A stretch of 64,000 bases of DNA from Polyangiales bacterium (GTDB taxonomy: Bacteria; Myxococcota_A; Polyangia; Polyangiales; JADJQN01): positions 416,001 to 480,000 of the forward strand of contig CAXNJO010000002.1 of assembly GCA_964202905.1 (NCBI GenBank), read 5' to 3'. The notes beneath the pieces are model-generated. The model did no database searches. It was not told the origin of the DNA and saw only the letters and a list, made by a program, of their open reading frames with translations. The position numbers and the translations under genes are program-made. The stretch's first letter is position 1. Each line of letters starts with the position of its first letter. Positions 1-62,332 of the stretch are shown piece after piece.

Positions 1-465
1 GAGCACGACGATGACGCGCAAGCCCCGCTCGGCCGCGGCCGCGAGGACCCGATCGAGGTGCACGAAGGACGACTCGACCCACGCGTCGTCGCCGACGCGG
101 AAGGCGTAGTCGCGTGCCCAGTCCGGGGCCCCCGCGGCGGCCTCCCCGAGCGCCCAGACGCGCACGACGCCGAGACCGTCCGCGCGCACGGCGTCGAGCA
201 CATCGGTGAGCGCGGCGCGGTGCGCCGGGCCGTGCATCACCGCGACGTTCGCGCCGACGAAGCGGAGGGGTCGCCCCGCGACGACGAAGCGCGTCCCCTC
301 GACGCGGACGAAGCGGTCCGCGTCCGCCGTGGCCGGGGGCGTCTCCCACGCATGCGCCGGGGACGAGAGCAGCGCGAGCGCGAGCACGGCGATCGCGCAC
401 GGCGCGGTGACGCGCGGCGCCCCGCGCTGCGACGCGAACGCCCGATGCTGCGGTGCGCGCGACAC
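1..465 (-). CDS. Secreted GH5 glycoside hydrolase (endo-beta-mannanase-like), N-terminal part; runs off the window edge
   Basis: Not in ORF track. Hand translation from GTG 465: signal-peptide-like CAIAVLALALLSSPAHA, then FVRVEGTRFVVAGRPLRFVGANVAVMHG...VVRVWALGE...LDRVLAAAAERGLRVIVVL, the typical GH5 mannanase N-terminus. Confidence 0.8.
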   Translation of the reverse strand, partial: MSRAPQHRAFASQRGAPRVTAPCAIAVLALALLSSPAHAWETPPATADADRFVRVEGTRFVVAGRPLRFVGANVAVMHGPAHRAALTDVLDAVRADGLGVVRVWALGEAAAGAPDWARDYAFRVGDDAWVESSFVHLDRVLAAAAERGLRVIVVL

Positions 466-619
466 GTGCTCGGGGCGGATCGTGACAGGCGGGCGCGGCG
501 CGGGCACCCCCCAGGGCGCGCGGCGCGGCCCCCGCACGAGCGACCCGCTGAACGCCCGTACCCGAAAACTTGGACGGGGCGCGGAGGCCGGATAGGAGGG
601 ACGGCTGGAGGCCTGGCGA

Positions 620-3172
620 ATGAGCAGCAGCAGCGGAGGCGAGGTGCGCAGTCTCTTCGTGCAGGCGCGGGAGGCCGCGCGGGCGCGGAAGCAATCGCTC
701 GGCACGGGCCACCTGTTGCTCGCGCTCCTGCAATCGGCGGGCGAGGCCGGCGACGTGCTCTCGCAGCAGGGCGTGAGCGAGGGCGCGCTGCTCAGCGCGC
801 TGAAGGTCGTCGGCGAAGAGGCGGGCACCGCCCTCGACATCGCGTTCGAGCGCGCCACGAAGCTCGCGGGGACGCTCGGCTCGGACGCGCCGCATCCGCT
901 GCACCTCCTGCTCACGCTCGCGATCGATCCCCGCAGCGCCGCGCACCGCTGCCTCGAGCAGTCCGGCGTCGGCGCCGCGCGCGTGCATGCGGAGGTGTGC
1001 GCCCGCATCGGCATCGTCCCGGGCCGCGAGGACACGTCGAGCGGGCTCGCGACCGAGCGCGGCGCCGTGCGCCCCATGACGCTGCGTCCGCCCCCCTCGC
1101 CGACCCCGCTGCCGACGAGCGGCGTACCGCACGCGGGCGCGACGCCCCCGGGCTCGGCGAGCGATCCGCTCGGCGCACGGCGCGCGACGCGGAGCGGCCC
1201 GCCGATCACGCCCGCGCGCACGACGGCGCGCGTCGGCACGACGCACCGCCCGCCTTCCGCGCGCCCCGGACCGTCCTCGTGGACCGCGCGCCCCGCGACG
1301 CCGACCGCGCAGCCCGCCCCGCAGGGCGCGCCTGCGCAGACGCCGGGCACGTCGCGCTTCGCCCTCGACGAGCGCACCTTCCCCACGCTCGTCGCGCTGT
1401 CGCGCAACCTGACGCAGCTCGCCGAGGCGGGCGCGATCGACCCGGTGATCGGGCGCGACGCGGAGATCGAGAAGCTCCTCGACATCCTCGCGCGGCGGCG
1501 CTCGAACAACCCGATCCTCGTCGGGCCCCCGGGTGTCGGCAAGACGGCCGTGGTCGAGGGCCTCGCGCTGCGGCTCGTCGCGGGCGCGAGCGGCCTGCCG
1601 GAAGACCGCATCCTCCTCGAGATCTCCGCGGGTTCGCTCGTGTCCGGGACCGGCGTGCGCGGCGCCCTCGCCGAGCGGCTCGCGCGGCTCCGCGCCGAGG
1701 TCGCGCGCGCGGAGGGGCGCGTGCTGCTCTTCCTCGACGAGATCCACGCGATCGTCGGCGGCGACGCGGGCGGCCCCGACGACCTCGCGAGCGAGCTGAA
1801 GGCCGCGCTCGCGCGGGGCGAGCTGCCGTGCATCGGCGCGACCACGGACGCCGAGTACCGCAAGCACTTCGAGCGCGATCCCGCGCTCGCGCGGCGCTTC
1901 TCGCGGCTCGAGGTCGGCGAGCCCGCGCCCGAGGACTGCGTGCGCATCCTCCGCGGCCTCGCGCCGCGCTACGAGCAGCATCACGGCGTGGCGTTCACCC
2001 CCGAGGCGATCGAGCAGGCGGTGACGCTCTCGATCCGTTTCCTCCCCGAGCGGCAGCTCCCCGACAAGGCGCTCGGGCTGCTCGATCTCGCGGCCGCGCG
2101 CGCGCGGCGTCGCGGCGTGCGCGTCGTCGATCTCGAGGCCGTCGCGCAGGTGATCAGCGAGCAGGCGCGCGTGCCGCTCGAGCGGCTGATGCTGCGCGAT
2201 CGCGAGCGGCTCCTCGGGCTCGAGTCGCTCGTCGCCGAGCGCGTCGTCGGGCAGCGCGCGGCCATCGCGCGCATCGCGGACGCGCTGCGCAAGGGCGCGG
2301 CGGGCTTCCGCGGGCGGCGTCCGCTCGGCACCTTCCTGCTGCTCGGCCCGACGGGCGTCGGCAAGACGGAGACGGCGCGCGCGATCAGCGAGGTGCTCTT
2401 CGCGGCGAGCGACTTCACGCGCCTCGACATGAGCGAGTACGCCGAGCCCCACGCGATCGCGCGGCTCCTCGGCGCGCCTCCCGGCTACCTCGGGCACGAC
2501 GAGGGCGGTCAGCTCACCGAGGCCGTACGGCGCCGGCCGTATCAGCTCGTGCTCCTCGACGAGATCGAGAAGGCGCACCCCGAGGTGCTGCTCGCGCTGC
2601 TGCCGCTGCTCGACGAGGGCCGCATGACCGACGGTCGCGGGCGCACCGTCGACTTCACGAACACCGTCGTCGTGATGACCTCGAACCTCGGCGTCGCGGC
2701 GTCGCGCGAGCGTCCCTCGCGCGCGATCGGCTTCGGCGGCGTCGATGGGCGGCCGCAAGCGCCGCCCGATCAGGGCGAGCAGGCCCTCGCCGCGGCACGC
2801 CGCGCGCTGCCCCCCGAGCTCTGGAACCGCATCGACGAGCCGCTCTGGTTCGGGCCGCTCGGCGCCGCCGAGGTCGAGGCGATCGCGGCGCGGATGCTCG
2901 CGCAGGTCGCGGCGGTGCTCGCCGCGGAGCACCGCGTGACGCTCGTCGTCGAGCCCGCTGCGCTCGGCGCGCTCGCGGCCGCAGGCGGCTTCGACCCGGA
3001 GCTCGGCGCGCGCCCGATGCGCCGCACGGTGGGCCGGCTCGTGGAGTCGCCGCTCGCGGAGCTCGTGCTCTCCGGGCGCGCGCTGCCGGGCGACGTGCTG
3101 GTGCTCTCCGGCGAAGGCGCCGAGGTCCGCATCCGGCCCCGCGGCGCGGCCCGCGCGGACGCTGCCGAGTAG
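620..3172 (+). CDS. ATP-dependent Clp protease ATP-binding subunit (ClpA/ClpC type)
   Basis: Clp N-domain, DPVIGRDAEIE, two Walker A motifs (GPPGVGKT, GPTGVGKT), LFLDEIH, RLDMSEY, GAPPGYLG and an IGF ClpP-docking loop (RAIGFG). No long ClpB middle domain. Long Pro/Thr-rich linker. Confidence 0.93.
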   Translation: MSSSSGGEVRSLFVQAREAARARKQSLGTGHLLLALLQSAGEAGDVLSQQGVSEGALLSALKVVGEEAGTALDIAFERATKLAGTLGSDAPHPLHLLLTLAIDPRSAAHRCLEQSGVGAARVHAEVCARIGIVPGREDTSSGLATERGAVRPMTLRPPPSPTPLPTSGVPHAGATPPGSASDPLGARRATRSGPPITPARTTARVGTTHRPPSARPGPSSWTARPATPTAQPAPQGAPAQTPGTSRFALDERTFPTLVALSRNLTQLAEAGAIDPVIGRDAEIEKLLDILARRRSNNPILVGPPGVGKTAVVEGLALRLVAGASGLPEDRILLEISAGSLVSGTGVRGALAERLARLRAEVARAEGRVLLFLDEIHAIVGGDAGGPDDLASELKAALARGELPCIGATTDAEYRKHFERDPALARRFSRLEVGEPAPEDCVRILRGLAPRYEQHHGVAFTPEAIEQAVTLSIRFLPERQLPDKALGLLDLAAARARRRGVRVVDLEAVAQVISEQARVPLERLMLRDRERLLGLESLVAERVVGQRAAIARIADALRKGAAGFRGRRPLGTFLLLGPTGVGKTETARAISEVLFAASDFTRLDMSEYAEPHAIARLLGAPPGYLGHDEGGQLTEAVRRRPYQLVLLDEIEKAHPEVLLALLPLLDEGRMTDGRGRTVDFTNTVVVMTSNLGVAASRERPSRAIGFGGVDGRPQAPPDQGEQALAAARRALPPELWNRIDEPLWFGPLGAAEVEAIAARMLAQVAAVLAAEHRVTLVVEPAALGALAAAGGFDPELGARPMRRTVGRLVESPLAELVLSGRALPGDVLVLSGEGAEVRIRPRGAARADAAE

Positions 3173-52192: not shown

Positions 52193-52834
52193 TCAGCCCG
52201 CGACGCTCGCCGCGATCACGAGCTGTCCGCCGAAGTAGAGCGGCAGTCCCCACGCGCGGTTGACGAACGCGTGCGCCACGAAGCGATCCCGCGCGACGGC
52301 GAGATCCGACGCGTAGAACATCAGCGCGCCGACGAGCCCGACGACCCCGCCGCCACGTCCGCTCGCGCCGACCGCGCACGCGACCATCGCCGAGATGACG
52401 AGGACGTAGGCCGCGACCGGCCCTCGCATGGACTTCTCGACGTGCGGCGCGAGCCAGCGCAGCGCGAGCCCGCTCGACAGCAGCACGAGCGGCAGCGCGA
52501 CGAGCAGCCGCGTCATGTCCGGGTCGCGCACGACGAAGGCGACCACGAAGGCGACGTGCCCGAGCAGGAACGCCACGAGCCCGCCGAGGAACGTCTTCGC
52601 CGACTTCGGGATGAGCAGCAGGTCGCCAACGAGCGAGAGCACGAGCCCCGCGAGCACGACCTGCCCGTACGTCGAGTCGAGCGCGCCCGCGCCGAGCGCG
52701 GCGATCACGAAGCCGAGCGCCGCGAGCGGCTTGGTCGCCCACTTGCCCGCCTGCGAGCCGCGCCATTCGGCCGCCATCAGGCCGGCCGTGCACGCGGTCG
52801 TCAGGGCGCAGCCGGTCGCGAAGAGTGAAGACAT
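52193..52834 (-). CDS. YhhN/TMEM86 lysoplasmalogenase family membrane protein
   Basis: TKPL, LSLVGDLLL, GLVAFLLGHVAF, FYASDLAVA.DRF, LYFGGQ. Confidence 0.88.
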   Translation of the reverse strand: MSSLFATGCALTTACTAGLMAAEWRGSQAGKWATKPLAALGFVIAALGAGALDSTYGQVVLAGLVLSLVGDLLLIPKSAKTFLGGLVAFLLGHVAFVVAFVVRDPDMTRLLVALPLVLLSSGLALRWLAPHVEKSMRGPVAAYVLVISAMVACAVGASGRGGGVVGLVGALMFYASDLAVARDRFVAHAFVNRAWGLPLYFGGQLVIAASVAG

Positions 52835-52896
52835 GCGGGCGCGAGCATACCTGCGCCGTGATAGCGTGCGGGGCCGCATTTCCCCGAGGAGTTCCC

Positions 52897-55188
52897 GTGT
52901 CGACAACCTCCCCGCTCCGCCTCGCGCTCGCCTTCGCATCCGTCCTCGCCCTCGCGGCCTGCGCCGGCAACGCGACGCCGCCCCCGGGGCGCCCGGATGG
53001 CGGTGGCATCGGAGACGGCGGCGCGCGCGACGGCGGCGGCGCCTGCGCGACGAACGCCGACTGCACGGACGACGGCATCTTCTGCAACGGCGGCGTGCTG
53101 TGCCGCGAGGGCGCCTGCACGACGACGCCCCCGCCGACGTGCAGCGACTCCATCGCGTGCACGCGCGACCTGTGCCTGACCGCCACCGACGCCTGCCAGA
53201 ACACCCCCGATGACGCGCTCTGCCCGATGGGCACGGTCTGCGAGCCCGGCGCGGGCTGCGCGACCCCCGCCGCGTGCGAGTTCGACGCCGACTGCACGGG
53301 CGACGGCGTCTTCTGCAACGGCGACGAGGTCTGCGTCGGGGCGATGTGCGTCTCGCCCGGCATGCGCAGCTGCGACGACACCGACTCCTGCACCGTCGAC
53401 GAGTGCGCCGAGTCGATGGGCCGCTGCGCGAACACGCTCGGCGATCACCGCAACGACCCGCTGCGCTGCGGCCCGACGGGCGCGAACGACTGCGTCGTCT
53501 GCCCCGCGCCGACGGCCGATCAGGTCAACACCTCCGCGTCGTGCAGCGTCGGCCTGTGCAGCCTCGCGTGCGCGACGGGCTTCGCCGACGCGGACCGCAA
53601 TGTCGCGAACGGCTGCGAGTGCGCGATTGGCGTCGGCACCGACGTGCCCGACGGAACGTACGCGGACAACGACTGCGACGGGATCGACGGCGACCGCGAG
53701 GCGGGGCTGCTCGTCTCGAACACGCTCGGCGCCGACACCGCGGACTGCGGCCTCGACTTCGCGACGCCCTGCCAGACCATCGCCTTCGCGACGACGCGCA
53801 CCTTCGCCGCGCGCCGCTTCGATCTCTTCGTGATGGCGGGCACCTACGACGAGGTCGTCGTGCTCTCGAGCGGCATGCGGGTCTTCGGCGGCTACGACAC
53901 CACGTGGCGCCGCGGCGCGCGCAGCGACAGCGCGCACCGCACCGTGATCCGCGGCGCGCTCGACGCGCCGTCCGGCCAGTACCTCACGGTCAAGGCGCGC
54001 AACCTCGTCGTCGAGTCCGTGCTCGAGAACCTCGTCCTCGTCGGCCCCGCCGCGAGCGGCACGGTGATGGGCGCCGGCAACGGTGCGTACGTCATCTACG
54101 CGGAGTCGGCCTCGGCGCTGCGCCTCGAGCGCGTGACGCTCCAGGCCGGCCCCGGCGCGCCCGGCGCCGACGGGACGAACGGCGACGACGCGGCGAGCCT
54201 CGCCGTGGCAGCGGGCGGCAGCCGGGGCGGGAACGGCGACGAGTACGACAGCGTCTGCGACACCTCGTCGCGGGGCGCCGGCGGCGGCGCCGGCACCAAC
54301 AGCTGCCCCGACGGCGCCGCGGTCCATGGCGGCGCAGGCGGCGCGGGCGGCACGATGGACACCTCGTGCGGCTTCAGCGGGAGCTGCGTCCTCAGCGGAA
54401 ACTGCGCGGCGCGGAGCGGTGACAGCGGCGCGGCCGCGGCGTTCCGCGCGGGCGCGTTCGGCGCGCCGGGCGGCGGCGCCGGGACGTGCAGCGGCAGCGC
54501 GGGTGCCGGTGGCCCGGGCCGCATCGCGAACGGAGCCGGCGGCGCGGGCGCAGGAGCGCGCGCGGCCTGCTCGTCTCGTCCTTCTGGTACGGCGCCTCGG
54601 GCGGGAGCGGGGCGTCGGCGAGAACGGCGGCGGAGGCGGTGGCGGAGGCGGCGGTGGCGGCTGCGACAACGGCATCGACTCGTACGGCGTCGGCGGCGGC
54701 GGCGGCGGCGCGGGCGGCTGTCGGGCGCGGGGCGCGGGCACGGGCGGCGGCGCGGGCGGCGGCAGCTTCGGCGTGGTCGTCGTCAGCAACTCGACCATCA
54801 CCGCGACCGACTGCGACGTGCTCCGCGCGAACGGCGGCGCGGGCGGACGCGGCGGCAGCAGCGGGCGCGGTCGGCCGGGCGGCTCCGCGGGCGCCCCGGC
54901 ACGCCCGAAGACTCGAGCGAGGGCGGTGCCGGCGGGACAGGCGGCCACGGCGGGCACGGCGGCGGCGGCGGCGGCGGCGCGGGCGGCGTCTCCTACGGCT
55001 TCTTCTCGCTGCGCTCGACCGTCACGCAGAGCTGCGCGTTCCTCTCGGGTGCGGGCGGCGCGGGCGGCGCCGGCGGGGCCCATGCGCCCTCGGCGCCCAC
55101 CCCCGAGCGCGATGGCAACGACGGCACGGCCGGCGTGACCGGCGCAATCGGCGACGTGCTCGTCTGCGCCGCGGCGACGGGCTGCTGA
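52897..55188 (+). CDS. Cys-rich / Gly-rich surface lipoprotein, compensated frameshifts
   Basis: GAGGAG RBS, LALAAC lipobox, CxDGxFCNG repeats, [10 protein letters not shown], poly-Gly blocks. The true reading passes through alternate frames at about 54560-54905. Confidence 0.82.
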
Positions 55189-55324: not shown

Positions 55325-55984
55325 TCAGCCCTTCGCGAAGAGGCCGATCGGGCAGGTCACGCCCGTGCCGCCGATGCCGCAGTAGCCGTCCGGGTTCTTC
55401 GCGAGGTACTGCTGGTGGTAGTCCTCGGCGAAATAGAGCTCGGGGCGCGGGAGGATCTCGGTGGTGATGCGGCCGAAGCCCGAGGCGCGCAGCCGCTCCT
55501 GGTACGCGTCGCGTGACGCCTCGGCCCGCGCGCGCTCCTCGGCCGTCGCGAGGTAGAGGCCCGAGCGGTACTGCGTGCCGACGTCGTTGCCCTGCCGCAT
55601 GCCCTGCGCCGGATCGTGGTTCTCCCAGAAGACCTGCAGGAGCGCGTCGAAGGCGATCCGGCTCGGGTCGTACACGATCAGCGCGACCTCGTTGTGGCCC
55701 GTGCGGCCCGTGCAGACCTCGCGATACGTGGGGTTGGGCGTGAGCCCCGCGGCGTAGCCGACCGCCGTCGTGTAGACGCCGTCGAGCTTCCAGAAGATGC
55801 GCTCGACGCCCCAGAAACAGCCCATGCCGACGAGCAGCTCGGCGCTGCCTTCGGGGAAGGGGCCGACGAGCGGCGTCCCGAGCACGAAGTGCGACGCGGG
55901 GACGGGCATGCGCTCACTGCGGCCGGGCAGCGCCTGCGCGGCGGTTGGGATGCGGGCCTTCTCGGAGGAGGTGAAAAACGACAT
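55325..55984 (-). CDS. msrA: Peptide methionine sulfoxide reductase A
   Basis: [44 protein letters not shown]. Confidence 0.96.
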
Positions 55985-56061
55985 TCGCGGGAATCTCGGT
56001 CCGGCGGAGGCGCATGGGAAGGGGCATCTGCCGCGCCCGGCGACGCGAACCCGCGCCGGGG

Positions 56062-57549
56062 TCAGCCTGCGCGTCGGCGCCGCACGAGGATCGCTGCGCC
56101 GCCGACTGCCCAGAGGGCGAGGAGCGGCGCGGTCCCCCGGCCCCCGCCTGCGCGGCAGCCGCAACGCCCGACGAGCGGCGCGTCCACGCTGCCGTCGGCA
56201 CGATCGCGGCCCCCACCGTCGCGCACCGCGCCAGCGTCGGCGCCGCCATCGGGCACGCCCGCGTCAGGCGGCGGGTCTTCCCCGCAGCGCGCGAGGGTCG
56301 AAGACGTCTCGACGCAGCCCCCGGTACAGGCGCGCTCCGCATACGCGCCGAGCGTGCAGACGCCGAGCGTCGCGCCGTCGCGACAGAACGCGCCATCCTC
56401 TGCGCCGAGCTCGGCGTTGCACAGGAGATGGACGCAGTGCGCCTGCGCGGGCGGTCCCGCCTCGCTGCACGTCGCGCCGTACACGCCGCAGTCGCCCTCG
56501 CTGAGGCGGCCGAGCTCGCAGGTCCCGATGCGCGTCGCGTCGAGACAGAAGCCCCCCTGCTCGCCGCCCTCGAGGTTCGCGGGGCAGTACGGGTGCACGC
56601 AATGCGCGAGGCCGCCCGCCGTCGAACAGGGCGCGCCGAAGAAACCGCAGTCCCCCGCGAGCACGGGTGCGCCCTCGCTGCACGACGTCGCGACGGTGCC
56701 CTCGCACGCCTGGAAATTGCGGTCTCCGCGGCAGAGCGGATCGATGTAGTCGGGGCAGTGCGGGGCCGCGCCGCTGCCGCTCGCGTAGAACGCGAGGTGG
56801 TTGCCCACGGTGCGCTCGGAGCCGTCGGACGGCCGGTTCTTCACGGCGCCGTTCACCACCATCGTGGAACTGCCGCCCCCATCGAGCGCGACCGCGTCGT
56901 GGGCGCCCTCGAGCGCCATCACGAAGGCGAGCTCGTCACAGGTCATGCCGGCCGCGCCCGCGCGTCGACCGTCGACGACCATCACGATCAGCGTGCGGTG
57001 ATCCTCGGTGAGCCCGAGCACGGTGCGCGGGTTGCGGTTCGTGCAGAGCGGATCGCCCGGGCTCCCGACGACGGCGCCGCGGTGCAGGAGCGTCGGATGA
57101 CCGCTCACGATCTCGCGCGCCCACGGCGGCGGCGTGCCCTCGAGGCCGTGGAGCGGGAAGTCCACGTGCGCGGAGCCAAACGCGATCGGCGCGACGTAGG
57201 TGTGGTTCGGCCCGCCCCAGGTCGCGCCGTCGTGCGCGGAGGGGCCATCGGTGTTGAACGCGCCGTCGAGGCTGAAGAAATCGCCGTTGATCGCGGCCTG
57301 CGCGCCGACGTCCGACGCGAAGCGGCTCACCCGGCGCCCGCGCTCGCCCTCCGCCGTGCCACGCACGCTCACGCCCGCCGCGCAGAGGTCGAGCCGCAGC
57401 ACCCACAGATCCTGCCCGCCCTCGACGTGGTGCTTCAGCGTGCCGCCCGCGAACGGCGTCGTGATCTCGTCGTACGCGCGCGCCTCCGCGGCGAAGGACA
57501 GCCCGGCGACGAGACCGGCGACGACGATGGACGGCAGCGTGTGACGCAC
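56062..57549 (-). CDS. Phosphodiester glycosidase (NAGPA/DUF2233) with Cys-rich region and MYXO-CTERM
   Basis: Signal peptide; [31 protein letters not shown]-terminus GRCGCRAG...hydrophobic...RRRR. Confidence 0.9.
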
Positions 57550-57664
57550 GCGCAACAGAATCGCGCTCCGGCCCCGATGTCAACGCGCGGCGTCCCGGCT
57601 GCGCCGGCCCGCGGCGACGGATCGGCGCCGACAGGCCCGAACGAGAAGCGCTAACGTCGCGCGC

Positions 57665-58915
57665 ATGGCGAACGGGAAGATCGCATTCGCGATGGTGGGG
57701 CTGCCGGCGCGCGGCAAGACGTACATGGCGCGCAAGATCGCGCGCTACCTCTCGTGGCTCGGCCACGACACGCGCGTCTTCAACGTCGGCAGCTACCGTC
57801 GCAACCGCATCGGGGCGCGGCAGACGCACGAGTTCTTCGACCCCGAGAATCCATCGGGCGCCGAGGCGCGTCGGCAGCTCGCGCTCGCGGCGCTCGACGA
57901 CATGCTCGGCTGGCTGCGCTCGGGCGGCGACGTCGCCATCTACGACGCCACGAACAGCTCGCGCGCGCGACGCGACCTGCTGCGCGCGGCCTGCGCGGAG
58001 CGCGGCGTCGAGCTCGTCTTCGTCGAGTCGGTCTGCGACGACGCCACGATCGTCGACGCCAACGTGCGCCTCACCAAGGCGCGCTCGCCCGATTACGCCG
58101 ACGTCGACGCCGACACCGCCGTGCGCGACTTCCTCGCGCGCATCCACCACTACGAGCACAGCTACCAGACGGTGAGCGACGACGAGGGCGCGTACGTCCG
58201 CGTGATCGACGTCGGGCGCAAGGTCGAGGCCCACCGCATCCGCGGCTCGATCGCGGCGCGGGTCGTGTACTTCCTGCTCAACCTGCACATCCAGCCCCGC
58301 AGCTTCTGGCTCACGCGACACGGCGAGAGCGAGGCGAACGTCCTCGGCGCGATCGGCGGCGACACGGGCCTCAGCCTTCGCGGCCAGGGCTACGCCGACG
58401 CGCTCGCGGAGTTCGTGCACGCGCGTGTCGCGCCGGGCGGCTCCCCCCTCGTCGTCTGGACGAGCACCCTGCAGCGCACCATCGCGACCGCCGCGCCGCT
58501 CGGCCTGCCGACGACGCGCTGGAAGGCGCTCGACGAGATCGACGCGGGCCGCTGCGATGGGATGACCTACGCCGAGATCGCCGGGCAGATGCCCGAGGAG
58601 TGGGCCGCACGGCAGACGGACAAGTTCCGCTACCGCTACCCGCGCGGCGAGTCCTACGAGGACGTCATCACCCGCCTCGAGCCGATCCTCCTCGGCCTCG
58701 AGCGCGAGCGAACGCCCGTGCTCGTCGTCGCGCATCAGGCCGTCATCCGCGCGCTCTACGCCTACCTGCTCGATCGGCCCGCCGCCGAGTGCCCGCGCAT
58801 CGACGTGCCGCTGCACACCGTGCTCGAGCTGACGCCGACGGCCTACGGCTGCGACGAGAAGCGCTGGCCGCTCGCGCCCTCCCCGCTCGATCAGGAGGGC
58901 TTTCGCGCGGTGTGA
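57665..58915 (+). CDS. Bifunctional 6-phosphofructo-2-kinase / fructose-2,6-bisphosphatase (PFKFB-like)
   Basis: MVGLPARGKT, FNVGSYRR, YDATN, SPDY; RHGES, WTSTLQRT, LDEIDAG, YPRGESY, AHQAV, PLHTV. Confidence 0.95.
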   Translation: MANGKIAFAMVGLPARGKTYMARKIARYLSWLGHDTRVFNVGSYRRNRIGARQTHEFFDPENPSGAEARRQLALAALDDMLGWLRSGGDVAIYDATNSSRARRDLLRAACAERGVELVFVESVCDDATIVDANVRLTKARSPDYADVDADTAVRDFLARIHHYEHSYQTVSDDEGAYVRVIDVGRKVEAHRIRGSIAARVVYFLLNLHIQPRSFWLTRHGESEANVLGAIGGDTGLSLRGQGYADALAEFVHARVAPGGSPLVVWTSTLQRTIATAAPLGLPTTRWKALDEIDAGRCDGMTYAEIAGQMPEEWAARQTDKFRYRYPRGESYEDVITRLEPILLGLERERTPVLVVAHQAVIRALYAYLLDRPAAECPRIDVPLHTVLELTPTAYGCDEKRWPLAPSPLDQEGFRAV

Positions 58916-58965
58916 GCGAGACGCGCTGCGCGTTTCCAGGGACGCGCGGCCTCCCGTGCCGCGAT

Positions 58966-61900
58966 TCAGTAGGTGACGAACTCCACCCCGTCGTTGGCCA
59001 GCGTGAAGTTCGTCGCGTTGCGACCGGGGCGGAAGTACGCCGCCGACCCGGCCGAGTCTTCGACACCCTGCGTGATGGTGCGCGACGAAGTCGGCAACGA
59101 CGTGGTGTGGATCTGGATGCGGTCGGTGGTCTCGAAGAGGATGATCTGCGTCGTCACCGGCGTGGACGTCGCGTAGTACGGCACGGAGATGTACGACACG
59201 ACGAACGTGCGGTTGGGCGCCGCGCCGCGCGTCTGATAGCGGATGGTCCCGCTGCTCGTGAGGCTCAGATCCGTCCACGCGGCCGCGATGAGGTCGTCCG
59301 TAAAGTCGAAGGACGGAATCGTGGACCCCGAGCAGCAACCCGAACCGATGCCCGTGTCGAAGCTCAGGAAGCCGTTCGAGGAGATCGACACCTGCGTGTA
59401 GGTGTTGTTGAAGAAGCGGAAGCTGAACCCGATCGGGATCGCTCCGGTGGTGCCGTCGTCGGTGGCCGCGAGGACTGACGTCCCCGTCGTCGCGACGGGC
59501 GCGAAGGGGATCGCGTAAGCGCCCGGCGTCGTGACCGAGCAGCCCTCGTCGGTGCTGCCGTTGCAGTTGTCGTCGGCGCCGTTCGCGCAGACCTCGGCCG
59601 TGGAGCTCGTCGCGTCGTTGCAGACGAGCGCCCCGCCCGAGCACACGCGGGTGCCCTCGACGCAGAGGTCCGTGTCCGCGCCATCGCACGGCGCACCGCC
59701 GCCCGGATTGCCATCGTCGGTGATGCCATTGCAGTCGTCATCGAGGCCGTTGCACGTCTCGACGCTCGTGCCGGTCACGTCGTTGCAGACGAGCGTGCCG
59801 CTCGCGCAGGTGCGCGTGCCCTCGTTGCAGACGTCGCCGTCCGACCCGTCGCAGGGCGTGCCGCCGCCGGGGTTGCCGTCGTCGATGACGCCGTTGCAGT
59901 CGTCGTCGGCGCCGTTGCACGCCTCGAGCGACGTCCCCGTCGTGTCGCTGCACACGAGGGCGCCGCCCGTGCAGGTGCCGACGCCCTCGTTGCAGAGGTC
60001 ACCGTCACCCCCGTCGCACGCCGCGCCACCGCCCGGATTGCCATCGTCGACGATGCCATCGCAGTCGTCGTCGGTGCCGTTGCAGCTCTCTGCGACCGGG
60101 CCGACCCAGCCCGCGCATGTGCCCCACGTCGAACCGACGCCGCCCGAGCCCGAGACGCACGTCTGCGCGCCGGTCACGCACGCGCCGACCCCGCTGGTAC
60201 CCGACGAGCCGCCGTAGCAGCTGCGCGTCGCGCCGAGTGAGCAGTCGCAGCCCTCGTCCGTGGCGCCGTTGCAGTTGTCGTCGACTCCATTGCAGCTCTC
60301 GGTGTTGGAGCCCGTCGCGTCGTCGCAGACGAGCATGCCCGCCATGCAGCGGTTCACGCCCTCCTGGCAGCTGTCCGCGTCCGCGCCGTCGCACGCGCCG
60401 CCGTCCGCGCCGTCGTCGGCCGTGCCGTCGCAGTCGTCGTCGAGCCCGTTGCACACCTCCGTGCCCGGCAGCCCGCTCGACGCGCTGCACGTCGTCCCCG
60501 CGCCATCCGCGCGGCAGACGTACGCGCCCGTGCGCGCGCACCCGCCGACGCCGACCGTGCAGGGGCGGCCGAGCTCGGTGAAGGGCTCGTCCACGACTCC
60601 GTCGCAGTCGTCGTCGATCGCGTTGCACAGCTCGGTGCCGGGCGCCGCCGCGCCCACGCTGCACGTCGTGCCGCTGCCGTCCGAGCGGCAGACGACCGAC
60701 CCGGTGCGCGCGCACGCGCCGACGCCCACCGAACACGCGCCGCCGAGCGAGAAGCCGTTGTCGACGGCGCCGTCGCCGTCGTCGTCGCAGGTGTTGCAGA
60801 ACTCGGTCGCGACGCAGCGGCCCCAGCCGCACGCGTCACCGCAGGTCTGGCTGCCGATCGTGCCGCAGCCGGGCACGACGCACGGCCGCGTCTCGCCCGC
60901 GCGGCACTCGACCGTGCTGCCCGGGCCGGGCTCGTCGATGCGACCGTCGCCATTGTCGTCGCAGCCGTTGCACGTCTCGGTCGGAGCGAGGCACGCGCCG
61001 AGACGGCACGCGCCGTTGCACGTCTGCGAGCCTCCCGTGCCGCACGTCGTCGTGCAGGTGCGCGCGCCCGAGCCGAGCGCGCATTGCATGCCGGGGCCGT
61101 CGTCGACGCCCACGGGGAACGCCGCGCCCCCGCCGGAGCAGTCGTTGTCGACACCGTCGCAGAGCTCCGCCGCGCCGGGGCGGATCGCGCGGTTGAGGTC
61201 GTCACAGTCGGCCCCCGACGCGCAACCGATCGCGGTGAAGCCGTCCCCGTCCGCGTCCGAGCCGCCCGCGACGCACATGCCCGGCTCCACGCAGGAGTCC
61301 GTCGTGCACGCGAGGCCGTCGCTGCAGTCGAGTCGCGCCCCCGCGACGCAGCCCATGCCAGGCGTCGTGCCCGTCACGTCGCAGCGCTCGGCGCCGTTGC
61401 ACACGAGGCCGTCCGAGCACGCCGCGTCGTTCGCGTCCTGGACGCAGGCGTCGGTCATCGCGTCACAGCGGCCGACGGAGCAGCCGATCGAGTCGCGGCA
61501 CTCGGGGGCCGTGCCCGACACACAGCCCGCCATCGCGTCGCAGCGCTCGGCGCCGTTGCAGAAGACCGCGTCGTCGCACGCCGCGGCCTCGGGGACCGCG
61601 ACGCAGCCGCCGGTCATCTCGTCGCAGACGTCGCGCGTGCAAGCCACGGCGTCGTCGCAGGCGAGCGCGGCGCCCGACACGCAGCCCTCGCCGTCGGCGC
61701 CTGCGCCGCCGGGCACGCAGGTCTCGGCCCCGTTGCAGACGAGCCCGTCGTCGCACGCGGTGTCCGCGGGTGCGCTCGCGCACGCGTCGCGGGTCGCGTC
61801 GCACGCGTCCACGGTGCAGGCAAAACCGTCGTCGCAATTGGGCACGTCCCCGCGCCGACAGCCGAACGCCGGGTCGCAGCGCTCGGCGCCGTTGCAGAAG

Positions 61901-62332
61901 ACACCATCGTCACAGGTGGCATCCGATTCGCAGGGCCGCGGCGCCGTGCAGCCGTCGATGCGGTCGCACATCAGCCCCACCGGGCACCGCGTGTCGTCCG
62001 CCGCCGCAGAGCACGCGCCCGTGCCGGGATCGCAGGCGTCCGCCGTGCATCCGATCGCGTCGTCGCAGACGACGGGCGTGCCGGGAACGCACACGCCGGC
62101 GATGCACGTCTCGCGCCCGTTGCAGGCGTCGAGGTCGTCGCAGGCGGCTGTCGTCCGCGCAGGTCGGCCCGGCGTCCCGGTCGCCGGGGTTCGCGTCGAC
62201 CTCGGCGTCGAGCGCCGCGTCCGCGGCCGGCCCTGCGTCGAACGCGCGCCGTGGCGGCACACCGCTCGCGCAGGCCGCGAGAGCGCCCGTCGCGAGGGCG
62301 AGCGCCGCCATCGAACACAGCACGTGGAACAT
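58966..62332 (-). CDS. Large Cys-rich surface lipoprotein (MopE-like metal-binding repeats) with C-terminal nidogen/NIDO-like domain; one frameshift
   Basis: MFHVLCSMAALALATGALAAC; frame switch at about 62147; many ExCNGxDDDCDG repeats; distal IPIGFSFRFF..TYTQVSISSNGFLSF...IAAAWTDL. Confidence 0.85.

Follow-up and report, generated by a model that had tools for sequence, protein, structure and literature searches.

Does a bacterium encode a complete enzyme of the type that forms and breaks down fructose-2,6-bisphosphate (Fru-2,6-P2), and if so, what would this enzyme do there and where did its gene come from? The question is raised by a gene at positions 57665-58915 of a 64,000-nucleotide stretch of DNA from a Polyangiales bacterium (hereafter the window, meaning the whole stretch that was analysed). 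A first-pass annotation made from the letters of the window had read this gene as a eukaryote-type 6-phosphofructo-2-kinase/fructose-2,6-bisphosphatase (PFK-2/FBPase-2), related to the animal PFKFB enzymes. Our results support the prediction of a complete, collinear and tail-less PFK-2/FBPase-2 with both catalytic sets intact, and the gene is an ordinary member of an under-studied bacterial family, not a one-off. In a 2026 preprint (PMC12873801) the Fru-2,6-P2 mechanism is described as eukaryote-specific, with reference to Michels and Rigden 2006.

The gene and its two domains are located as follows:

57665..58915, plus strand: PFK-2/FBPase-2 gene, 416 aa and a stop codon (ORF list, Pfam, PDB sequence search, neighbour strands)
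57671..58297, plus strand: 6-phosphofructo-2-kinase domain, residues 3-211, with Walker A GLPARGKT 12-19, YRR 44-46, DATN 94-97 and SPDY 141-144 (Pfam PF01591, E 2.1e-72; conserved columns)
58304..58867, plus strand: histidine-phosphatase-type fructose-2,6-bisphosphatase domain, residues 214-401, with RHG 218-220, E291, H357 and R271 (Pfam PF00300, E 2.3e-39; 1c7z, E 1.1e-65; conserved columns)

No other start codon precedes the ATG in the open frame, and the gene is monocistronic, with both neighbours on the opposite strand (one divergent, one convergent). Pfam finds 6PF2K (profile positions 11-223 of 223, 243.5 bits against a cut-off of 27) and, C-terminal to it in the same chain, His_Phos_1 (branch 1; 135.5 bits against a cut-off of 21.7). 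The intact 416-residue open reading frame (ORF) with a kinase and then a phosphatase domain, as first annotated, is therefore borne out, and each of the motifs named for it can be read in the translation. In addition to those listed above, FNVGSYRR lies at residues 39-46, LDEID at 289-293, AHQAV at 356-360 and PLHTVLELTPTAYGC at 382-396.

The top match among sequences in the PDB is human PFKFB3 (2axn_A, E 2.3e-126), where query residues 3-397 align with positions 33-428 of the 520-residue chain. Further matches are human liver PFKFB1 (3.4e-125), human and bovine PFKFB2 and the rat testis enzyme, the whole set extending to 1e-120, and the isolated rat liver bisphosphatase domain 1c7z aligns over query residues 212-397. 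Overall, the animal enzymes PFKFB1-4 (PFKFB3 2axn and 4d4j, human liver 1k6m, human and bovine heart 5htk and 5hr5, rat testis 1bif) have the domain order of the query, are 45-48% identical to it over approximately 405-415 positions (E 2e-126 to 1e-120) and have the conserved catalytic and substrate-site columns in common with it.

The likeness does not include the regulatory tails of the animal isoenzymes. The 416-residue protein ends 19 residues past the aligned stretch and is without the approximately 30 N-terminal and 90 C-terminal residues of the PFKFB3 chain. Because the alignment joins query residues 3-397 to positions 33-428 of 520, the protein is a bare catalytic core, in agreement with the collinearity and lack of tails that had been claimed for it. 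In animal isoenzymes the N- and C-terminal extensions carry phosphorylation sites; such tails with protein-kinase sites define the animal isoenzymes, not the wider PFK-2/FBPase-2 family. The query also differs from animal PFKFB in its bacterial codon usage, in having no introns and in an arginine at residue 271, where PFKFB3 has serine.

Are the residues that matter for catalysis retained? An alignment was made of the query, 19 other Myxococcota sequences and 71 non-myxobacterial homologues (named animals, fungi, one plant, Amoebozoa, oomycetes, and unlabelled cluster representatives). The query residue is identical in 75 of the 76 columns that are conserved at >=90% among the 71 non-myxobacterial rows. 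These columns take in the Walker A loop, DATN, SPDY, kinase arginines and tyrosines, the RHG histidine, E291, H357 and basic residues of the phosphatase pocket, and all but four of them are invariant in 20 of 20 Myxococcota rows. In the kinase the conserved state is matched at G12-K18, R45, R46, R69, D94, T96, N97, R102, R103, E121, D143, Y144, R159 and Y163, and in the phosphatase at R218, H219, G220, N225, R271, E291, Y302, R316, K320, Y331, H357 and R362; we take these residues to have catalytic or substrate-binding roles. Residue 271 is arginine in the query and in 70 of the 71 non-myxobacterial rows. The serine of human PFKFB3 at this place is the reason for its weak phosphatase. Since the bacterial enzyme has the arginine, unlike PFKFB3, it looks like a balanced two-activity form.

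An AlphaFold2 model of the protein was built on a 31-sequence alignment that contained eukaryotic PFKFBs (mean predicted local distance difference test, pLDDT, 92.0; predicted template modelling score, pTM, 0.88). In Foldseek, whole chains of PFKFB3, PFKFB2, PFKFB1 and the rat testis enzyme were overlaid on it. For 25 of the 26 top-ranked PFKFB chains the template modelling score (TMq) was 0.90-0.94 and the root-mean-square deviation 1.7-2.6 A over 403-418 columns, at 45-48% identity; for 4ma4 the deviation was 5.8 A over 427 columns. As the model overlays whole PFKFB chains, the mutual arrangement of the two domains is predicted to be the same as in the animal enzymes.

How widespread is this protein among bacteria? 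A word-indexed protein search (8000 scored candidates, threshold E<=0.001) returned 4528 proteins. The best 120 of these 4528 are all 405-432 aa long, 62-94% identical to the query and possess both Pfam domains, and six of the 120 bear the NCBI name '6-phosphofructo-2-kinase/fructose-2,6-bisphosphatase [Polyangiaceae bacterium]'. The bacterial family is already named in databases and this gene is one more member of it. Annotated Myxococcota homologues (Sorangium cellulosum, Sorangium spp., Sandaracinus amylolyticus, Minicystis and metagenome-assembled genomes (MAGs) of Polyangiaceae) are 405-452 aa long with the same two domains and 55-94% identity, and nothing of substance sets the query apart from them. 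One homology-based source name in this group, '6-phosphofructokinase', is imprecise.

A profile search gave a census of the phylum. In an even sample of 401 Myxococcota genomes, source genome (G000) included, 6PF2K was found above the Pfam cut-off in 81 genomes, and weak P-loop matches alone in 29 more. The pattern is patchy: in one family 28 of 29 genomes have the domain, and other families with >20 sampled genomes are without a match above the cut-off. All 15 fetched loci (12 from the 6PF2K census, 3 from named records) contain full-length two-domain homologues at 53-60% identity. A search of genome contigs with the bare protein gave three loci, namely a Polyangiaceae MAG, a Sandaracinaceae MAG and one uncultured bacterium. 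Among the named carriers are Sorangium cellulosum and two more Sorangium strains, as well as Sandaracinus amylolyticus and Minicystis, with contigs of up to 12 Mb, and the named records put the organism of the window among the Polyangia of Myxococcota. In the ESM Atlas, clusters of 339 and 182 two-domain proteins of approximately 404-413 aa, commonest in Thermodesulfobacteriota, have the domain pair (6PF2K + His_Phos_1) and the size of the query. The earlier mention of 'scattered bacterial homologues' was right that these exist and understated their number, given 81 of 401 genomes, cultured Sorangium and Sandaracinus, and the large Thermodesulfobacteriota clusters. With 81 of 401 genomes matched and 15 of 15 loci full-length at 53-60% identity, the family is under purifying selection over a wide range. 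Michels and Rigden reportedly noticed bacterial copies in 2006.

What does the enzyme do? Judging from the conservation of sequence and fold, its most likely function is that of a bifunctional PFK-2/FBPase-2 which makes and hydrolyses Fru-2,6-P2, and we consider this probable. In the N-terminal half, the P-loop kinase would use ATP to phosphorylate C2 of fructose-6-phosphate, and the C-terminal histidine phosphatase would hydrolyse the product via a phospho-histidine intermediate (His219), so that the two activities together would set the cellular Fru-2,6-P2 pool. Because the protein is without regulatory tails, the balance between kinase and phosphatase is presumably set by metabolite levels or expression and not by phosphorylation.

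The same fold could also be used for other chemistry: the protein may act on another sugar phosphate, or one domain alone may be catalytically relevant in vivo. Such a divergence would agree with the NCBIfam library, in which the protein exceeds no curated cut-off and histidine-phosphatase models are matched below cut-off only, and with the generic labels that some sources use ('broad specificity phosphatase PhoE/predicted kinase', 'bifunctional nucleoside/nucleotide kinase/histidine phosphatase family protein'). Full-text literature searches, with subscription journals largely outside their coverage, found neither a study nor an assay of a bacterial PFK-2/FBPase-2. However, the 75 retained columns lie across both domains, and the identity of 45-48% to enzymes of proven specificity extends over the whole chain, with the domains arranged alike. 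Monofunctional PFK-2/FBPase-2 forms exist in fungi and protists and have lost catalytic residues; no such loss is seen in the query. We therefore regard a change of chemistry as improbable.

If Fru-2,6-P2 is the product, which enzymes would respond to it? Fru-2,6-P2 binds the active site of class I fructose-1,6-bisphosphatase (FBPase) as an inhibitor, and it activates the pyrophosphate (PPi)-dependent phosphofructokinase (PFK) of plants and the pyruvate kinase of trypanosomatids. The most plausible receiver in this genome would be its class I FBPase, and a possible second one its single PPi-type PFK, by analogy with the plant cytosol. There is one class I FBPase (NCBIfam equivalog NF006778, 457 bits against a cut-off of 368), with Escherichia coli FBPase as the closest solved relative (2e-101), followed by mammalian FBPases (about 1e-91 to 1e-87). 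The one PFK has 446 aa and its closest solved relative is the PPi-dependent 9dqm (E 1.3e-34). The GGDDT and PKTIDND motifs, which presumably mark PPi dependence, are common to both, and the best NCBIfam model is PPi-PFK NF041103 (240 bits, below its cut-off of 550). The sole PFK of the genome looks PPi-dependent. As a set, PPi-PFK, class I FBPase and PFK-2/FBPase-2 resemble the plant cytosol. Of the 401 phylum genomes, 73 of the 81 carriers of 6PF2K have a class I FBPase, versus 139 of 320 non-carriers (counts across related genomes).

At the PFK locus (L014, G000:C11) the ORFs occupy 52-1455 and 1465-2805, and the PFK starts 10 bp after the preceding ORF. Judged by eye, the latter resembles the C-terminal portion of a biotin carboxylase, including a biotinyl domain.

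Besides the NCBIfam result, several observations weigh against a Fru-2,6-P2 enzyme with these targets. The single departing conserved column is G344, where the others have glutamate. Eukaryotic PFKFBs were in the AlphaFold2 alignment, and the agreement in fold therefore partly mirrors likeness to solved structures. The database names of the family rest on homology. Eight of the 81 carriers (completeness 81-96%) have no detected class I FBPase, and since relatives are not independent and shared ancestry confounds the counts, the association is a lead and not a test. PFK (PF00365) occurs in 390 of 401 phylum genomes, which makes its co-occurrence uninformative. With a single PFK gene, there is no second degenerate subunit of the plant kind, the subunit which mediates activation by Fru-2,6-P2 in the plant enzyme, and to our knowledge bacterial PPi-PFKs are generally non-allosteric. 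The gene context (NAGPA, MsrA and MopE-repeat neighbours, all on the opposite strand) gives no metabolic hint, and no RNA run is on record among the 20 listed sequencing runs with the stretch.

Does the gene belong to this genome? It is present in single copy in an assembly of 5.68 Mb (19 contigs, 94.5% complete), surrounded by the following features:

55325-56164, minus strand: MsrA (ORF list, Pfam)
56062-57555, minus strand: secreted NAGPA-domain protein (ORF list, Pfam)
57556..57664, no strand: divergent intergenic region of 109 bp between the NAGPA gene (minus) and the PFK-2/FBPase-2 gene (plus) (ORF list, promoter scan, TAACGT check)
58966-62262, minus strand: 1098-aa cysteine-rich protein with MopE motifs (ORF list, Pfam)

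These flanking genes are ordinary bacterial ones; the first-pass annotation had called the neighbours myxobacterial. Its description of the codons as host-like and GC-rich also holds: GC content at third codon positions (GC3) is 95.7% in the gene and 90.8-95.8% in three neighbours, with an overall GC content of 71.7% in the gene and 75.4% in the window.

The stretch was found in lake-water and freshwater metagenomes. In run X1, Logan contigs extend over 56900-57877 (with 1 mismatch) and over 58625-59068 (with 0 mismatches), and those of run X2 cover 57420-58033 and 58802-59008. Contigs of both runs cross the upstream and the downstream end, and both gene ends are thus bridged. X1 and X2 are not independent of the assembly because they belong to one study, possibly its source. 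Run X5, which comes from another study, is independent. It contains a 1593-nt contig, approximately 94% identical, that spans 57356-58923, taking in the end of the upstream gene and the whole of PFK-2/FBPase-2, and its intergenic stretch is diverged but equal in length. No listed Logan contig spans the whole 2.8-kb stretch, the pieces being short and of depth 4-9. No sign of a chimeric join was seen at the gene ends in the contigs of X1, X2 and X5, which answers the worry, voiced earlier, about support across the flanks.

A eukaryotic contaminant or an assembly chimera is a natural concern in a MAG of 19 contigs whose closest DNA holders are lake-water metagenomes at a depth of about 4-9. This explanation is effectively refuted and its probability is close to nil. 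The GC3 of the gene fits the flanking bacterial genes, contigs of two runs bridge both ends, the 94%-identical relative from the other study has the same upstream neighbour, and homologues are found in complete genomes of cultured myxobacteria (contigs of 10.8-12.0 Mb) as well as in the 81 phylum genomes. The PFK-2/FBPase-2 gene is native to this genome.

At position 58443, inside the phosphatase domain, one Logan contig of run X3 (depth 5) is without one base, a change not present in X1, X2 and X5. Either an error of assembly or a frameshifted variant present in the sample may account for it.

Where did the gene come from? Three trees were made, all unrooted, without an outgroup and with many cluster representatives unlabelled. 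In the FastTree phylogeny (137 rows, 433 columns) all 29 Myxococcota rows formed one clade (support 96), placed beside Amoebozoa-type and oomycete-type rows (85) and apart from animals, fungi and plants. In a quick IQ-TREE run (LG+C20, 91 rows, 417 columns) the 20 Myxococcota rows again formed one clade with a short stem (Shimodaira-Hasegawa approximate likelihood-ratio test, SH-aLRT, 89), within a polytomy with plants, oomycete-type and Amoebozoa-type groups. A careful IQ-TREE analysis used 53 rows and 423 columns, after 38 of the 91 rows had been removed, among them P0230, P0234 and P0241 (the three short forms with the longest branches), P0199 and redundant clade members; its ultrafast bootstrap correlation of 0.976 is not fully settled. 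Opisthokonta (100/96), the Amoebozoa-type group (100/98) and plants (99/99) were supported. The query's own group (92/95) consisted of nine Myxococcota rows, Sorangium and Sandaracinus among them, the remaining five Myxococcota rows fell into three small groups, and the backbone was a polytomy. Forcing the 14 Myxococcota rows into one clade cost 1.52 log-likelihood units (approximately unbiased test, p-AU 0.472). When Myxococcota were constrained together with P0139 and P0182 (400-407 aa), a group chosen after a tree was seen and whose bacterial identity comes from length and Atlas neighbours only, the tree was 22.1 log-likelihood units above the free quick tree (p-AU 0.862).

No bacterial row was nested in any of the supported eukaryotic clades, and for this reason the sequences do not support a recent transfer with animals, fungi or plants as donors. 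Identity within Myxococcota (53-60%) and from the query to eukaryotes (45-57%) points to equally deep divergence, and the gene is old in Myxococcota. As the trees have no root, the direction of transfer cannot be told from them.

Among the nearest labelled eukaryotic relatives are Amoebozoa (Acytostelium, Dictyostelium, Cavenderia, Balamuthia) and oomycetes (Phytophthora, Pythium, Albugo). The Acytostelium protein P0122 is 56% identical to the query and is the best single-stretch match among the cluster representatives. These proteins share an unresolved region of the tree with the bacterial rows, and no supported sister relation was found there. Unlike the query, they carry N-terminal extensions of approximately 100-350 residues, which in the oomycete forms have the carbohydrate-binding module PF16561. 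P0461, a 539-aa protein labelled 'MAG: ... [archaeon]' by NCBI, pairs with P0131 (support 100) inside the Amoebozoa-type eukaryotic group; the record probably stems from a eukaryotic contig that was placed in an archaeal bin.

Did the fused gene arise in eukaryotes, pass to bacteria long ago, once or a few times, and was it then inherited and spread within Myxococcota and Thermodesulfobacteriota? The chances that it did are in our view about even. The family spans named animals, fungi, plants, Amoebozoa and oomycetes, and in the bacterial phylum it is patchy (81 of 401 genomes, several large families without a match above the cut-off). The trees place the myxobacterial rows with protist lineages (Amoebozoa-type, oomycete-type) rather than outside the eukaryotes as a whole. 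The preprint PMC12873801, citing Michels and Rigden 2006 for a eukaryote-specific mechanism, points the same way. However, no bacterial row is nested in Opisthokonta, in the Amoebozoa-type group or in plants, Myxococcota sequences differ among themselves as much as the query does from eukaryotes, and the trees are unrooted.

The opposite history, in which the fused gene arose in bacteria and was taken up by eukaryotes, or both received it from a shared donor, appears unlikely to us, though it has its own evidence. The tree which constrains Myxococcota with P0139 and P0182 is the better one by 22.1 units, and the Atlas clusters nearest P0139 are those of Myxococcota and Thermodesulfobacteriota. 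P0139 and P0182 are 47-51% identical to the query, sit on longer branches and are more divergent than the myxobacterial homologues; the Thermodesulfobacteriota-type forms and the myxobacterial group are compatible with one bacterial clade. A single Myxococcota clade is not rejected (p-AU 0.472) and was recovered outright in two of the three trees (support 96 and 89), and in the quick IQ-TREE the stems are short, with no long branches. On the other side, the P0139/P0182 grouping is post hoc, and the two forms are taken as bacterial by their length and Atlas neighbours only. In the careful tree, which has no outgroup, the Myxococcota rows are divided among four groups within a polytomy, and the bacterial distribution is patchy.

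A more specific form of bacterial origin would be that the fused enzyme arose in the former Deltaproteobacteria (Myxococcota, Thermodesulfobacteriota), controls the FBPase/PPi-PFK step there, and was acquired by a eukaryotic ancestor from such a bacterium. It is compatible with the trees, since bacterial rows lie outside every supported eukaryotic clade and the fit of a single bacterial clade is no worse than that of the free tree, but taken as a whole this scenario is doubtful and should be read as speculation. If it were true, Fru-2,6-P2 signalling would not have been invented by eukaryotes, and a regulator of central metabolism would join the short list of myxobacteria-like contributions to eukaryogenesis. 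In PMC2964296, a second cofactor-independent phosphoglycerate mutase of Sorangium cellulosum is reported as most similar to kinetoplastid and plant enzymes, a further eukaryote-like gene of glycolysis in this group of bacteria.

Why does such a family matter? One in five sampled genomes of the phylum keeps a full, strongly conserved PFKFB-type enzyme although Fru-2,6-P2 counts as a regulator of glycolysis that is specific to eukaryotes. If the carriers make Fru-2,6-P2, the regulatory circuit would have a longer history or a greater mobility than is assumed, and it could be studied in a simpler setting, where isoenzymes and phosphorylation tails are absent and this genome has one FBPase and one PFK. 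The main value lies in a biochemical question that is testable in culturable myxobacteria, as Sorangium and Sandaracinus carry the gene.

The surroundings of the gene were examined as well. A scan around it detected no sigma-70-like promoter and no terminator. The TAACGT box that had been pointed out upstream of the start is indeed present in the window, but none of the 15 related loci has TAACGT upstream of the homologous start. Four window neighbours were compared by tblastn with the same 15 loci, 12 of which have only about 1.5 kb of flank. No conserved operon or neighbourhood was seen in these mostly short-flanked loci, the only matches being msrA in L018 and weak MopE repeats in L011. In L018, an uncultured relative, msrA (111-755, minus strand, 61% identity) is divergent and directly beside the PFK-2/FBPase-2 gene, with the msrA of the window one gene further off; it was not seen in the other 14 loci, mostly short-flanked.

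The 1098-aa protein at 58966-62262 is separated from the convergent PFK-2/FBPase-2 gene by a 50-bp gap. It is probably secreted and contains repeated CxxC-type modules, its sole Pfam match being the MopE putative metal-binding motif (E 1.6e-22, 2 stretches). Further upstream, a 787-aa ORF at 52825-55188 on the plus strand has a signal-peptide-like start and a cysteine-rich N-terminal half, with no Pfam match at E<=0.001. It is overlapped by long antisense ORFs, which are typical of DNA with 75% GC.

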